DNA from: Escherichia coli
Lineage (GTDB): Bacteria > Pseudomonadota > Gammaproteobacteria > Enterobacterales > Enterobacteriaceae
DNA: 42,323 nucleotides
Assembly: GCF_003334315.1 (NCBI RefSeq)
Contig: NZ_QOWR01000043.1
Strand: one strand, 5' to 3'
Below are positions 5,983-42,323 of the stretch, piece after piece (positions within the stretch are counted from its first letter, which is position 1; every line of letters starts with the position of its first letter). The position numbers and the translations under genes are program-made. The notes under the pieces are model-generated. The model had not been told where the DNA came from, made no database searches, and worked only from the letters and a program-made list of their open reading frames with translations.

Positions 5983-7242
5983 ATGAATCTTACCGAATTA
6001 AAGAATACGCCGGTTTCTGAGCTGATCACTCTCGGCGAAAATATGGGGCTGGAAAACCTGGCTCGTATGCGTAAGCAGGACATTATTTTTGCCATCCTGA
6101 AGCAGCACGCAAAGAGTGGCGAAGATATCTTTGGTGATGGCGTACTGGAGATATTGCAGGATGGATTTGGTTTCCTCCGTTCCGCAGACAGCTCCTACCT
6201 CGCCGGTCCTGATGACATCTACGTTTCCCCTAGCCAAATCCGCCGTTTCAACCTCCGCACTGGTGATACCATCTCTGGTAAGATTCGCCCGCCGAAAGAA
6301 GGTGAACGCTATTTTGCGCTGCTGAAAGTTAACGAAGTTAACTTCGACAAACCTGAAAACGCCCGCAACAAAATCCTCTTTGAGAACTTAACCCCGCTGC
6401 ACGCAAACTCTCGTCTGCGTATGGAACGTGGTAACGGTTCTACTGAAGATTTAACTGCTCGCGTACTGGATCTGGCATCACCTATCGGTCGTGGTCAGCG
6501 TGGTCTGATTGTGGCACCGCCGAAAGCCGGTAAAACCATGCTGCTGCAGAACATTGCTCAGAGCATTGCTTACAACCACCCGGATTGTGTGCTGATGGTT
6601 CTGCTGATCGACGAACGTCCGGAAGAAGTAACCGAGATGCAGCGTCTGGTAAAAGGTGAAGTTGTTGCTTCTACCTTTGACGAACCCGCATCTCGCCACG
6701 TTCAGGTTGCGGAAATGGTGATCGAGAAGGCCAAACGCCTGGTTGAGCACAAGAAAGACGTTATCATTCTGCTCGACTCCATCACTCGTCTGGCGCGCGC
6801 TTACAACACTGTTGTTCCGGCGTCAGGTAAAGTGTTGACCGGTGGTGTGGACGCCAATGCCCTTCATCGTCCGAAACGCTTCTTCGGTGCGGCGCGTAAC
6901 GTGGAAGAGGGCGGCAGCCTGACCATTATCGCGACGGCGCTTATCGATACCGGTTCTAAAATGGACGAAGTTATTTACGAAGAGTTTAAAGGTACAGGCA
7001 ACATGGAACTGCACCTCTCTCGTAAGATCGCTGAAAAACGCGTCTTCCCGGCTATCGACTACAACCGTTCCGGTACCCGTAAAGAAGAACTGCTCACTAC
7101 TCAGGAAGAACTGCAGAAAATGTGGATCCTGCGCAAAATCATTCACCCGATGGGCGAAATCGATGCAATGGAATTCCTCATTAATAAACTGGCCATGACC
7201 AAGACCAATGACGATTTCTTCGAAATGATGAAACGCTCATAA
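5983..7242 (+). CDS. rho: Transcription termination factor Rho, 419 aa
   Basis: ORF 5911..7242; canonical start [19 protein letters not shown] at ATG 5983; Walker A PPKAGKT present. Confidence 0.97.
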
Positions 7243-7257
7243 ATTTGTCTTATGCCA

Positions 7258-7293
7258 AAAACGCCACGTGTTTACGTGGCGTTTTGCTTTTAT
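7258..7293 (+). terminator. Rho-independent terminator downstream of rho
   Basis: Hairpin aaaacgccacgtg-ttta-cgtggcgtttt followed by a T-rich tract, 15 bp after the rho stop. Confidence 0.8.
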
Positions 7294-7481
7294 ATCTGTA
7301 ATCTTAATGCCGCGCTGGCGATGTTAGGAAAATTCCTGGAATTTGCTGGCATATTATGCAATTTGCATATCAAATGGTTAATTTTTGCACAGGACTGGTG
7401 GGTTCGGAACGGACTTTCCCTTCTGAATAAAGGTCTTCGTGGTTATACTTCTGCTAATAATTTTCTCTGAGAGCATGCATT

Positions 7482-8585
7482 GTGAATTTACTGACAGTGA
7501 GTACTGATCTCATCAGTATTTTTTTATTCACGACACTGTTTCTGTTTTTTGCCCGTAAGGTGGCAAAAAAAGTCGGTTTAGTGGATAAACCAAACTTCCG
7601 CAAACGTCACCAGGGGTTGATACCACTCGTTGGGGGTATTTCGGTTTACGCAGGGATTTGCTTCACGTTCGGAATTGTCGATTACTATATTCCGCATGCA
7701 TCTCTCTATCTCGCTTGTGCCGGTGTGCTTGTTTTCATTGGCGCGCTGGATGACCGTTTTGATATCAGCGTAAAAATCCGTGCCACCATACAGGCCGCTG
7801 TTGGCATTGTTATGATGGTGTTTGGCAACCTTTATCTCAGTAGCCTGGGTTATATCTTTGGCTCCTGGGAGATGGTGCTCGGACCGTTTGGTTACTTCCT
7901 GACGCTATTTGCCGTCTGGGCGGCCATTAATGCGTTCAACATGGTTGATGGCATTGATGGCTTGCTGGGCGGGTTGTCCTGCGTCTCGTTTGCAGCAATC
8001 GGTATGATTTTGTGGTTCGACGGGCAAACCAGCCTCGCAATCTGGTGCTTTGCGATGATCGCCGCCATCCTGCCATATATCATGCTTAACCTTGGTATCC
8101 TGGGTCGCCGCTACAAAGTCTTTATGGGTGATGCGGGCAGTACGCTGATTGGTTTTACCGTGATCTGGATCCTGCTCGAAACGACCCAGGGCAAAACCCA
8201 TCCCATCAGCCCGGTTACCGCTTTGTGGATAATCGCCATTCCGCTAATGGATATGGTGGCGATTATGTACCGTCGCCTGCGTAAAGGCATGAGCCCATTC
8301 TCTCCTGACCGTCAGCATATTCACCATTTGATCATGCGTGCCGGGTTTACTTCCCGTCAGGCGTTTGTGCTGATTACCCTTGCCGCAGCACTGCTCGCTT
8401 CCATTGGCGTGCTGGCAGAATATTCTCATTTTGTCCCGGAGTGGGTCATGCTGGTGCTCTTTTTGCTAGCATTCTTCCTCTATGGATATTGCATTAAGCG
8501 TGCCTGGAAAGTTGCTCGCTTTATTAAGCGCGTAAAACGCAGACTGCGTAGAAATCGTGGTGGCAGCCCCAATTTAACCAAATAA
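7482..8585 (+). CDS. wecA: UDP-GlcNAc:undecaprenyl-phosphate GlcNAc-1-phosphate transferase WecA, 367 aa
   Basis: ORF 7482..8585 with GTG start; polytopic membrane protein; first gene of the ECA cluster. Confidence 0.93.
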   Translation: MNLLTVSTDLISIFLFTTLFLFFARKVAKKVGLVDKPNFRKRHQGLIPLVGGISVYAGICFTFGIVDYYIPHASLYLACAGVLVFIGALDDRFDISVKIRATIQAAVGIVMMVFGNLYLSSLGYIFGSWEMVLGPFGYFLTLFAVWAAINAFNMVDGIDGLLGGLSCVSFAAIGMILWFDGQTSLAIWCFAMIAAILPYIMLNLGILGRRYKVFMGDAGSTLIGFTVIWILLETTQGKTHPISPVTALWIIAIPLMDMVAIMYRRLRKGMSPFSPDRQHIHHLIMRAGFTSRQAFVLITLAAALLASIGVLAEYSHFVPEWVMLVLFLLAFFLYGYCIKRAWKVARFIKRVKRRLRRNRGGSPNLTK

Positions 8586-23759: not shown

Positions 23760-23769
23760 AAAAGCGGCC

Positions 23770-23920
<151 letters not shown>

Positions 23921-23926
23921 GCCGGC

Positions 23927-25582
23927 TTAGTCAGATTTAATCTGCGCGCGTGGTGGATATTTTTTCAGGATCTCCATATACGCGTGCATTTCGGTCTGTA
24001 GCGGTACACCCATCGGAATATGGCGCACGCCGATGGAGTCGCTTTCCTGCGGATCGGTGTAGAGGTTAAACACCGACGATCCCGCCGTTTGCATTACTGT
24101 GCCGGTGAATCCACCCTGATATCCGCTCTGGGTATAAGCGTAAGGTTGCTGAATCAGGACGTGATACTTGAACTCATCCATACGCACAGCAGCGAGTTTA
24201 CCGTTGAGGAAGTAGTGCTCGGCCTTACGGTTAGACTGACCATTTGTTCCCAGGAAGAAGGATGTCTGGTCCACACCATCGATAAAGGTGGTTTTCGGCA
24301 CTAAATTCGCCACTTTCGCTCCAGGATGCCCTGCCAGATCCAGCGCGGTAGGGAAGAGATCTGCCAGATCGACAATACCGTCAGATTTACGCGGTTGGAT
24401 CATCCCTTTCCAGTAAACGAAAGTCGGTACGCGAACGCCGCCTTCCCAGGTCGAACCTTTCGCACCACGGAACGGGGTGCGTCCGTGCGGCGGTACTTCG
24501 GCTTCCGGTCCGTTATCGGAGGTAAAGACGATCAGCGTGTTATCAAGCTGACCGTTTTTCTCCAGTGTTTTATACAGATTAGCGAACACATCGTTCATCT
24601 CCACCATGCAGTCGCCATACGAGGTGCGTGCCGGAGAGCTACCCGCATATTTAGCGTTCGGGTAGTTATCGAAGTGACAGCCGCGAGTGCCGTAATAGAG
24701 GAAGAAAGGCTTATCGCTCTTCGCCATCTTGTCGAGGAACTTAACGCCATATTCCATCCAGCGTTGATCCAGATCTTCCATATATTTCGGCGTAATGTCG
24801 GCAATGGCCTGTTGTTCGCCGCCGCGCACTGCATGAACATCATCTTTGCTGAACGGTAATTGCTTGATGTATTCAGAATGGTCCGGACTCAGGGCCACTT
24901 CCGGATTGACGTGAACGTCGCGCCATTCGGTGTACATATCAGACACCGAGTTAAAGCCACGGAAATCATCAAAGCCAACGTTCTGCGGCTGCGACTCTTT
25001 GTTTTCCCCCATATGCCATTTCCCGATAGCCTGGGTGACGTAACCTTGGTCGTGCAGCAATTGCGGCAGGGTGGTTAACCCTTGCAGACCTCCCGGTTGC
25101 CCGTACATTGGCGGCATCAGAATGCCGTGGTGGATGGAGTATTGTCCGGTGAGAATGGTGGCGCGGGTTGGGGAAGAGCTTGGTTGAGAATACGCCGACG
25201 TTAAAATCAGCCCCTGGCTGGCAACTGCATCGATATCTGGTGTAGGGTTACCCACCGCCACGCCGCCACCGTTAAAACCGACGTCCATCCAGCCCACATC
25301 GTCCAGCAGGAAGATAACCACATTGGGCTTCTTACCGGTTTTTTTCTCAAGTTCTGCCAGCTTCTGCTGGGTTTCTTTATCCTGCGCCGGATGCTGCATT
25401 ACTGGCATCATGTTGTCGGCAATAGTGGTCGCCGGTTTAACCAGATACTGGTTTGGGTGATCGTATCCGGCAAAGCCTTTGCGTGCGGTGGCAGTTGACG
25501 GGGTATCTGCTGCGCTGGCCATGAGAGGAAGAGCGGCGGCGACAGCAACAACAAGACGTTTGGGTGAAAACGAAATTTCCAT
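23927..25582 (-). CDS. aslA: Arylsulfatase-like protein AslA, 551 aa, with N-terminal signal peptide
   Basis: ORF 23927..25582 minus; sulfatase signature S-x-P-x-R ([11 protein letters not shown]); hydrophobic signal sequence ending ASAADTP. Confidence 0.93.
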
Positions 25583-26006
25583 GCAAAATGCTCCGGTTTC
25601 ATGTCATCAAAATGATGACGTAATTAAGCATTGATAATTGAGATCCCTCTCCCTGACAGGATGATTACATAAATAATAGTGACAAAAATAAATTATTTAT
25701 TTATCCAGAAAATGAATTGGAAAATCAGGAGAGCGTTTTCAATCCTACCTCTGGCGCAGTTGATATGTAAGGCAGGTTTATTATATCGCGTTGATTATTG
25801 ATGCTGTTTTTAGTTTTAACGGCAATTAATATATGTGTTATTAATTGAATGAATTTTATCATTCATAATAAGTATGTGTAGGATCAAGCTCAGGTTAAAT
25901 ATTCACTCAGGAAGTTATTACTCAGGAAGCAAAGAGGATTACAGAATTATCTCATAACAAGTGTTAAGGGATGTTATTTCCCGATTCTCTGTGGCATAAT
26001 AAACGA

Positions 26007-26203
26007 GTAGATGCTCATTCCATCTCTTATGTTCGCCTTAGTGCCTCATAAACTCCGGAATGACGCAGAGCCGTTTACGGTGCTTATCGTCCACTGACAG
26101 ATGTCGCTTATGCCTCATCAGACACCATGGACACAACGTTGAGTGAAGCACCCACTTGTTGTCATACAGACCTGTTTTAACGCCTGCTCCGTAATAAGAG
26201 CAG
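26007..26203 (+). ncRNA. glmZ: Small regulatory RNA GlmZ (activator of glmS translation); ends approximate
   Basis: ORF-free stretch beginning gtagatgctcattccatctcttatgttcgcc, preceded by a cataat -10 (25995..26000) and ending in terminator gcctgctccgtaataagagcaggc + T7; matches the GlmZ sequence as I recall it, in the aslA-hemY intergenic region. Confidence 0.8.
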
Positions 26204-26260
26204 GCGTTTTTTTATGTGTCAGGAAGGCCCCGGAGGTGCTTGCCCCCGGGTGAGAAGGAA

Positions 26261-27457
26261 CTACTGTGGTGGGTTGTTCTGCAACGTTAACATCAAACCG
26301 TCGTGACGCATCGCTGCAGCTTCTTCCGGCTTGTGCAGTCTGTCCAGCGCGTCGGCAAGCCATGCGTAATCGTAGGCGTCCGGACGTTGTTTCAGCGCTG
26401 CGCGGAAGGCGAGCGATGCTTCCTGCCATTCTCCGTGCTTCATCAGTGACTGGCCCAGTGTGCTCCACAACAGCGGGCGATCGCCGACGTTTTTGATCTG
26501 CTGGCGCAGCACTTTTTCCAGCTGTTCCGGATTGTTGGTTTTCAGTCGAGGAATCGGCAGCAGTAGGCGATCGTCATACTGGCGTTTCAGGCCGTCGATG
26601 ATAATTTGCTGGGCAGTATCATGATCGTCACATTCAATAAGATGTTCCGCCATTGCCACCTGCAACGCTACCTGATGACGCGTTTTCCGGCTTTGGTTTT
26701 TCCACCAGTTACGCAAGCCTTCGCTACCGTTATCGGCACGCGCCTGATCCATCAGGCCAATCCATGCCTGTTGTTCCAGCATTGCACGATGTTCTTCATC
26801 GCCAACGTGGGCTTTCGCCATTGATGGGATGATATCCAGCAGCGAACTCCATGCACCAGTGCGGATATACGCCTGTTCCGCCAGACGTAATACTTCCGGA
26901 TGGCGTGGCGTAACTTCCAGCAGCTTATCCACGCCGTGGCGTGCAGCATGGTTTTCATTACGGGCCAGTTGCAGACGTACACGGGTGATTTCTACCGGAA
27001 TTGTGTCGTTGCCGGCCAGCTCCGCTGCGCGTTCCAGATGTTGGTTGGCGCGTGCTTCATCACCGCGTTGTTGCGCGGCTTCGGCAGCCAGCAGATAGTT
27101 CACCACCGGTTGTTCAGCGTGATCGGCATTTTTCGCCATCAGCTTTTCAACTTGCTGATAATCGCCTTCCGCTAGTTTCAGCAGCGCCTGTTCGGTCTGC
27201 TTACGGGCACGGCGACGCTTACGTCCGACAAACCACCCACGGGTGTGTGCGCCTGTGCGGAAGATCCGCCGCAGTAGCCACTCAATGGCAAACAGCACTA
27301 CCATCGCCAGAATCAAAATAATCGCCAGGCCAGTGACGCTGGTTTCGATATTGTAGTTGTCGGTCTGAATCAATACGTACCCCTGATGACCGGCAATCAT
27401 CGGGCCAACCACGATCCCCGCAATCAGCAAAACAAAGAGCAATAGCACTTTTAGCAT
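26261..27457 (-). CDS. hemY: HemY protein (TPR-containing inner membrane protein), 398 aa
   Basis: ORF 26261..27457 minus; N-terminal TM segments; last gene of hemCDXY. Confidence 0.93.
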   Translation of the reverse strand: MLKVLLLFVLLIAGIVVGPMIAGHQGYVLIQTDNYNIETSVTGLAIILILAMVVLFAIEWLLRRIFRTGAHTRGWFVGRKRRRARKQTEQALLKLAEGDYQQVEKLMAKNADHAEQPVVNYLLAAEAAQQRGDEARANQHLERAAELAGNDTIPVEITRVRLQLARNENHAARHGVDKLLEVTPRHPEVLRLAEQAYIRTGAWSSLLDIIPSMAKAHVGDEEHRAMLEQQAWIGLMDQARADNGSEGLRNWWKNQSRKTRHQVALQVAMAEHLIECDDHDTAQQIIIDGLKRQYDDRLLLPIPRLKTNNPEQLEKVLRQQIKNVGDRPLLWSTLGQSLMKHGEWQEASLAFRAALKQRPDAYDYAWLADALDRLHKPEEAAAMRHDGLMLTLQNNPPQ

Positions 27458-41993: not shown

Positions 41994-42119
41994 TCAAAGG
42001 CTCCAGGTATTTAACCCTTTTACCTCTTTCTCATAGAACCATTTGTTCGTGTTAACAGCAACATAGGCTGCTACGGCAATTCCCAGAATGTTAACGCCAA
42101 TTAGTGCACCAACAAATAG
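41994..42119 (-). pseudogene. 3' fragment of a small membrane-protein gene truncated by IS1
   Basis: Minus-strand frame reads ...LFVGALIGVNILGIAVAAYVAVNTNKWFYEKEVKGLNTWSL* (stop at 41994..41996); open frame runs uninterrupted into the first base of IS1 at 42120; in K-12 gene order the gene convergent with corA is yigF, but I cannot confirm the protein identity. Confidence 0.5.
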
Positions 42120-42323
42120 GGTGATGCTGCCAACTTACTGATTTAGTGTATGATGGTGTTTTTGAGGTGCTCCAGTGGCTTCTGTTTCTATCAGCTGTCC
42201 CTCCTGTTCAGCTACTGACGGGGTGGTGCGTAACGGCAAAAGCACCGCCGGACATCAGCGCTATCTCTGCTCTCACTGCCGTAAAACATGGCAACTGCAG
42301 TTCACTTACACCGCTTCTCAACC
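42120..42323 (+). mobile_element. Insertion sequence IS1, left end (partial; continues beyond the window)
   Basis: Begins with the IS1 terminal inverted repeat ggtgatgctgccaacttactgat and continues with the IS1 left arm and insA 5' region as I recall it; only about 204 of about 768 bp are in the window. Confidence 0.92.
42175..42323 (+). CDS. insA: IS1 InsA (transposition repressor / N-terminal part of InsAB' transposase), 5' partial
   Basis: GTG start at 42175; translation [49 protein letters not shown] with zinc-finger CxxC...CxxC; runs off the window. Confidence 0.88.

Follow-up and report, generated by a model that had tools for sequence, protein, structure and literature searches.

The AT-rich aslA–glmZ spacer of Escherichia coli as a probable aslA regulatory region with the glmZ promoter at its far end

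The 424 bp that separate aslA from glmZ in Escherichia coli (25583..26006, GC ~0.325, in the 42,323-nucleotide stretch of contig NZ_QOWR01000043.1 analysed here, hereafter the window) probably constitute the regulatory region of aslA, which shares its far end with the glmZ promoter, carries AT tracts on both sides of the aslA core promoter and experiences modest dampening by H-NS. Outward from aslA, this region would comprise a conserved leader of ~153 nt with a Shine-Dalgarno sequence at -12, the sequence cTTACA-18-TAGGAT as a weak sigma-70 core promoter inside an island of normal GC content, a conserved 40-bp block upstream of that promoter, ~75-125 bp evolving near the neutral rate and, at the far end, the constitutive sigma-70 promoter of glmZ. 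Two extreme AT tracts (12-23% GC), one upstream and one in the leader, would flank the aslA core promoter, a layout that could let H-NS nucleate on either side of it, and aslA would also be held low by a poor promoter, which matches the consensus at 8 of 12 positions and has an 18-nt spacer. The spacer is an ordinary and largely known divergent regulatory region, already in the literature as H-NS-binding; the glmZ promoter and the in vitro binding of H-NS are taken from published work, and the sole new element would be the phylogenetic placement of a candidate aslA promoter.

On the minus strand, aslA (23927..25582) encodes an arylsulfatase of 551 amino acids, and its ATG (25580-25582) keeps its position in all relatives, in agreement with the start at 25582 proposed in a sequence-only reading of this DNA. 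On the plus strand, the glmZ sRNA (26007..26213) is identified by Rfam (RF00083, 218 bits) and by the NC_000913.3 annotation, ends in an intrinsic terminator (26179-26208) and is followed downstream by hemY (26261..27457). The window aligns to positions 3960426-4002748 of MG1655 with 99.43% identity (230 mismatches, 3 gaps), and from aslA onwards its coordinates equal those of MG1655 minus 3960425. The spacer was found in all 5426 complete E. coli genomes, with a median of one place per genome, and 19 of the 5426 do not reach 80% coverage of the 626-bp query. The sequence-only reading had described 25583..25995 as a strongly AT-rich block upstream of aslA, and base composition bears this out. 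The block has a GC content of 0.329, and the full stretch from the aslA ATG to the glmZ +1 one of 0.326, both far below the 0.525 of the window (z = -5.5 for the block relative to all 413-bp windows, with mean 0.5255 and sd 0.036). No 413-bp segment in the 42 kb has a lower GC content than the one beginning at 25567, and the AT runs quoted in that reading are present (aaataaattatttatttatcc at ~25686-25706 and ttaatatatg...cataataag at ~25826-25872). Intergenic regions are a fairer GC baseline than the whole window, and among the 18 of at least 50 bp in the window the spacer ranks first in both length and AT-richness, the remaining ones ranging from 0.376 to 0.564 in GC (pooled 0.458). The end assigned to the block falls on the opening base of the glmZ -10 hexamer (25995), and the block as originally delimited thereby cuts the glmZ promoter.

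The AT-richness of the spacer is patchy. GC falls to 0.23 at 25653..25722 and to 0.20 at 25813..25862, and between these two extreme tracts lies an island with normal GC (25723-25772, 0.43-0.50). This pattern of AT tracts and GC island is common to six Escherichia lineages, across which the first tract, located inside the predicted leader and downstream of the putative aslA promoter, has a GC content of 0.18-0.23, and the second, upstream of that promoter, one of 0.12-0.20. The second tract contains a 9-bp inverted repeat, CAATTAATA/TATTAATTG (25823-25847); other Escherichia species do not conserve the right arm of the CAATTAATA palindrome, and the short direct and inverted repeats of the spacer mostly look like chance matches in AT-rich DNA. 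That the block should harbour an unannotated gene for a small protein or sRNA is very improbable. Each strand has mechanical ORFs, four in all and 23-45 aa long, and two conserved GC-richer islands (25643-25655 and 25721-25752) are able to pair with each other, but none of the five other Escherichia lineages keeps three of these ORFs unbroken, and only one of the five has the remaining ORF (40 aa, 25679-25801) intact, so the earlier statement that no ORF is present was right in substance. Moreover, a search of 20-30 kb against Rfam at E <= 1 returned no match inside the spacer, no terminator-like site lies inside it, the predicted fold of the leader is no better than those of shuffled sequences (z = -1.64), and the curated MG1655 record (NC_000913.3) has no annotated feature between aslA and glmZ, yet annotates tiny proteins, such as ysgD, elsewhere in the window.

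The glmZ end of the spacer has been dissected experimentally. The sigma-70 promoter, ATGTTA-N15-tggCATAAT on the plus strand (25971..26000; -35 at 25971-25976, extended -10 at 25992-26000), has hexamers that end 6 nt before the glmZ +1; it was mapped by deletion and point mutation as a single, constitutive promoter that needs no DNA upstream of -40 (Göpel et al., 2011; PMC3045617). In Salmonella and Yersinia, a region with a sigma-54 promoter along with three GlrR sites and two IHF sites occupies the same place, directly 5' of a conserved glmZ by hemY, and the E. coli block could accordingly be viewed as a degenerate remnant of this sigma-54/GlrR/IHF enhancer, given its same position relative to glmZ and the fact that such modules are AT-rich and carry IHF sites (Göpel et al., 2011). 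Unlike those regions, however, the E. coli spacer is devoid of any defining motif: the patterns TGTC-N10-GACA and TGGC-N8-TGC[AT] have no match in E. coli or in 13 aslA-linked relatives, and the IHF consensus has none in the spacer. Independence from GlrR and sigma-54 has been established experimentally, with no binding of GlrR to -424..+32 in EMSA and no effect of ΔglrR or ΔrpoN on glmZ, and the two groups of glmZ upstream sequences proved impossible to align (Göpel et al., 2011; PMC3045617). Only ~40 bp serve glmZ in E. coli, and the AT-rich block tracks aslA, not glmZ, in Salmonella arizonae and Citrobacter. The remnant hypothesis, already largely refuted, is therefore extremely unlikely.

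The promoter of aslA can be approached through its conservation across genera. Species-representative genomes were scanned with AslA, yielding 77 loci, and the order aslA–glmZ–hemY was also found in five more Escherichia lineages, in Kluyvera, Pseudocitrobacter and Superficieibacter, and in one other enterobacterium. In the 13 other lineages with this order the spacer measures 303-496 bp (mostly 400-436) and has a GC content of 0.30-0.36, and blastn does not align it beyond Escherichia. A single invariant footprint, which reads cTTACA-18-TAGGAT in the window (25771..25742, minus strand), is present in 17 aslA upstream regions from at least 6 genera. An alignment of 12 sequences (Escherichia, Kluyvera, Pseudocitrobacter, Superficieibacter and one further enterobacterium) has, outside the glmZ promoter, no invariant clusters but A25742, T25743, T25746 and A25747, together with TGTAA at 25766-25770, which map to T1, A2, A5 and T6 of a putative -10 hexamer (TAGGAT, 25742..25747, minus strand) and to positions 2-6 of a putative -35 hexamer (cTTACA, 25766..25771, minus strand; TTTACA in Kluyvera, S. 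arizonae and Citrobacter). The hexamers are kept, with a -35/-10 spacing within 15-19 nt, while the intervening sequence, 18 nt long in E. coli, varies freely across species. All 17 aslA upstream regions hold exactly one match to [CT]TTACA-N15-18-TAnn[AT][TG], located at -131 to -214 from the ATG (TTTACA-16-TATAAG in Kluyvera, TTTACA-16-TATAGT in S. arizonae), and the same pattern matches in 7% of spacer shuffles, a chance per sequence that flatters the footprint, since the pattern was written post hoc and the 17 sequences are related. In E. coli, both hexamers are unchanged in four divergent alleles.

As judged from this footprint, cTTACA-18-TAGGAT is most likely the core promoter of aslA, from which we infer transcription to start near 25736 and to produce a leader of ~153 nt. 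The sequence-only reading had held that the block hosts divergent promoters for aslA and glmZ, which fits the mapped glmZ promoter (Göpel et al., 2011) and the candidate aslA promoter suggested by the footprint. A consensus promoter scan returned 3 sites, with 2.5 expected, and was uninformative: it picked up neither the mapped glmZ promoter nor the putative aslA one, the latter being skipped because of its weak E. coli hexamers. This poor match to the consensus may itself explain the low expression of aslA. A point against the proposed placement is that the transcription start site supplements of Kim (2012) list none for the gene. Immediately upstream of the putative -35 hexamer, a block at 25773..25812 that contains TTGATTATTGATGC shows 84-95% identity in Escherichia and is possibly a regulator site or an UP-like element. 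Both the footprint and the AT-rich upstream DNA also accompany aslA in S. arizonae and Citrobacter sp., where aslA has another gene as its upstream neighbour and glmZ is absent within 4 kb. Because they follow aslA in genomes in which it does not neighbour glmZ, the AT-rich block is assigned, on this comparative evidence, to aslA and not to glmZ.

The aslA–glmZ spacer is itself an entry, at map position 85.83, in the published catalogue of 'type-A' divergent spacers, those with two constitutive RpoD promoters, but the sequences picked there coincide neither with the mapped glmZ promoter nor with the putative aslA promoter (Shimada et al., 2014; PMC3946193). For glmZ, the catalogued TTGAGA-17-GATGAT and the mapped promoter of Göpel et al. 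(2011) are ~340 bp apart, with the former lying upstream. In the aslA direction, the consensus-picked TTAACA-18-TGTAAT (25937..25966, minus strand) differs from the invariant cTTACA-18-TAGGAT and is only partly kept in Escherichia, with TTAATA and TGCAAT in other species. The segment 25939-25970 (-68 to -37 from the glmZ +1), which overlaps this candidate divergent promoter, is 88-96% conserved across Escherichia, although DNA beyond -40 is dispensable for glmZ.

Downstream of the predicted start site, the presumptive aslA leader (25583..25736, minus strand) carries a Shine-Dalgarno sequence, GGAGC (25591..25595, minus strand), whose GGAG at -12 is invariant in 15 of 15 aslA upstream regions from several genera, and the 70 nt of the leader nearest to aslA (25583-25652) show 86-98% identity among Escherichia species. 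Predicted folds pair the Shine-Dalgarno sequence with an upstream AAUGCUU, and the 5' end of the leader with 25643-25655, but no covariation was detected in this long-range stem (25723-33/25643-55), and the pairing probability of the Shine-Dalgarno sequence, computed without a null model, is suggestive, at 0.01 to 0.54 in 15 orthologues. A structured leader is thus a model prediction that stands unproven. A hairpin at 25603-25619 (GTCATC-N5-GATGAC) drew interest at first through a compensatory change in E. albertii and was dropped as a firm feature because it is broken in three E. coli alleles (BL21, O55:H7 and FDAARGOS_1292). In BL21, a 7-bp tandem duplication of ATTGATA at 25630-25636 falls inside the otherwise invariant aslA-proximal leader.

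Within Escherichia, mean pairwise identity is 0.80 for the spacer and 0.64 for the four-fold sites of aslA, indicating that the spacer is constrained as a whole, in a mosaic. Identity reaches 0.86-0.98 at 25583-25652, 0.91-0.93 at 25723-25752, 0.84-0.95 at 25763-25812 and 0.78-0.96 at 25939-26008, and drops in a neutral-like core (25863..25938) to 0.53-0.69, around the four-fold rate of ~0.64. This core, with GC 0.33-0.36 in all Escherichia lineages, invites the reading that everything outside the two core promoters is unconstrained filler, AT-rich through AT-biased mutation. The failure of blastn to align the spacer beyond Escherichia, the dispensability for glmZ of all DNA upstream of -40, the natural IS1 insertions and deletions that hit the spacer and its use by laboratories as a neutral chromosomal integration site are all in keeping with such filler. 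Nevertheless, ~70% of the spacer (25583-25652, 25723-25812 and 25939-26006, with identities of 0.78-0.98) lies above four-fold conservation, and the extreme AT tracts (GC 0.12-0.23), well below the neutral-like core in GC, are kept in every lineage. Moreover, the other intergenic regions of the window pool at a GC content of 0.458, and 25583-26213 has zero mismatches between the window and MG1655, whereas the flanking genes differ by ~2%. We consider the filler reading unlikely on these grounds. The neutral-like core also contains a perfect 10-bp direct repeat of K-12 type, ACTCAGGAAG, with copies at 25905-25914 and 25920-25929 (15 bp apart), which is kept among E. coli alleles but not in other Escherichia species.

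The sequence-only reading had further seen in the whole block an intrinsically curved DNA coated by nucleoid proteins (H-NS/Fis) that may keep aslA silent. The block is 67% AT and rich in TpA steps, which are favoured by H-NS and are 2.3-fold enriched in the spacer (9.7 vs 4.2 per 100 bp). Binding itself has been reported in vitro: 'aslA < HNS > glmZ' appears among the divergent spacers that bind RpoD holoenzyme, with an H-NS site identified by Genomic SELEX (Shimada et al., 2014; PMC3946193). Silencing would also be compatible with the lack of an aslA start site in the survey by Kim (2012) and with the description of aslA as 'latent' in a supplementary note (PMC4288151). Curvature, however, is not supported. 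In the Bolshoy-Trifonov wedge model, with approximate parameters, the spacer averages 6.35 deg/turn and the window 6.12, with one local peak in the spacer, at the aslA start codon, and AA/TT phasing at 10-11.2 bp, a test independent of the wedge parameters, is not above that of shuffles, 68% of which reach the observed power. The high-affinity H-NS motif tCGATAAATT (Lang, 2007) has a single site with up to 2 mismatches in the spacer (TGGATAAATA), a weak match that amounts to 2.4/kb vs 0.9/kb in the window.

Transcriptome data also argue against silencing by H-NS alone. In the comparison of wild type and Δhns by RNA-seq, aslA has a log2FC of +0.48 (P = 0.13) and a logCPM of 4.77, and glmZ a log2FC of +0.10, while the values for bglG, hdeB and proV listed alongside lie at +2.8 to +5.9 (Forrest et al., 2022; PMC8894471, Supplementary Data 2); positive values are read as higher expression in Δhns, as deduced from the classic H-NS targets in that table. 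The change in aslA is hence 1.4-fold and non-significant, and the gene is detectably expressed, leaving a role for H-NS unproven. Furthermore, glmZ lies 40 bp from the block and shows a constitutive activity that deletion of the block leaves unchanged. The aslA spacer does resemble H-NS-bound promoters of the proU (URE/DRE), bgl and hdeAB type in having AT- and TpA-rich DNA on both sides of a sigma-70 promoter, in binding H-NS in vitro and in the poor expression of its gene, but it differs from them in the absence of clear derepression in Δhns, of a good match to the high-affinity motif and of predicted curvature. [quoted passage not shown] Altogether, binding by a nucleoid protein stands in vitro, the curvature invoked to explain it does not, and a curved, H-NS-coated block that silences aslA has a low probability. 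In the preferred reading of the spacer as an aslA regulatory region, H-NS probably exerts a modest dampening rather than silencing, and any effect of H-NS in cells is one that we infer.

A further possibility, which we rate as quite unlikely, is that selection acts on the architecture itself (~400-430 bp, 30-36% GC, AT tracts flanking a promoter island), which would form an insulator loaded with H-NS/StpA. Such an architecture would have been kept across Escherichia, Kluyvera, Pseudocitrobacter and Superficieibacter despite a turnover of sequence beyond detection by blastn, and would shield aslA from being driven by, or suffering interference from, the constitutive promoter of glmZ, while the conserved 153-nt leader, with its often paired Shine-Dalgarno sequence, could act as a second, post-transcriptional brake.

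With the glmZ end already dissected and the spacer already in use for integration, the reading of the block as an aslA regulatory region changes little for the field. The well-supported position of the candidate aslA promoter and its long conserved leader could nonetheless aid the study of the poor expression of aslA in the laboratory. The gene has been reported to act as an invasion factor in meningitic E. coli K1. The locus also offers a caution, in that AT-rich here does not equate with curved or H-NS-silenced. For users of the integration site, it is relevant that purifying selection acts on most of the spacer and that an insertion between 25583 and ~25812 would separate aslA from its putative promoter.

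Natural variation at the locus includes two IS1 events. In PCP06171, IS1 is inserted at ~25672-25681, with duplication of the target, and 23865-25443 of aslA has been lost; in PSS-16, IS1 replaces 24662-25956, removing the 5' half of aslA and most of the spacer and leaving ~50 bp upstream of glmZ. In the O55:H7 strain USDA5905, the annotation lists aslA as a pseudogene because of an internal stop, although the spacer upstream of it retains 98.7% identity; decay of the gene appears to be under way in this lineage. Relative to MG1655, aslB, aslA, hemY and hemX accumulate ~115 mismatches (97.2-98.1% identity vs 99.43% windowwide), the 631 bp of spacer and glmZ contain none, and BL21, FDAARGOS_1292 and other strains carry spacer alleles that are only 94-95% identical, a distribution that looks like recombination mosaicism around the aslA–glmZ locus.

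Several observations concern other parts of the window. The convergent aslB–aslA spacer (23760-23926) contains REP-like repeats that match the Rfam family naRNA4 on both strands below its gathering threshold (44 bits, threshold 59.5), with a 9-bp indel relative to MG1655 at 23764-23776. The rho–wecA spacer (7050-7700) has the second-lowest GC content of the window (0.385 at its 413-bp minimum, 0.397 for the spacer), a predicted curvature peak at 7338 and a match to the IHF consensus at 7368-7380. The first ~75 bases of the window have no alignment to MG1655. At the other end, the last 204 bases (42120-42323) are 100% identical to the end of IS1, the same IS1 as in PCP06171 and PSS-16, and the MG1655 alignment stops at 42119, indicating that this strain has an IS1 insertion near yigF that is absent from K-12.
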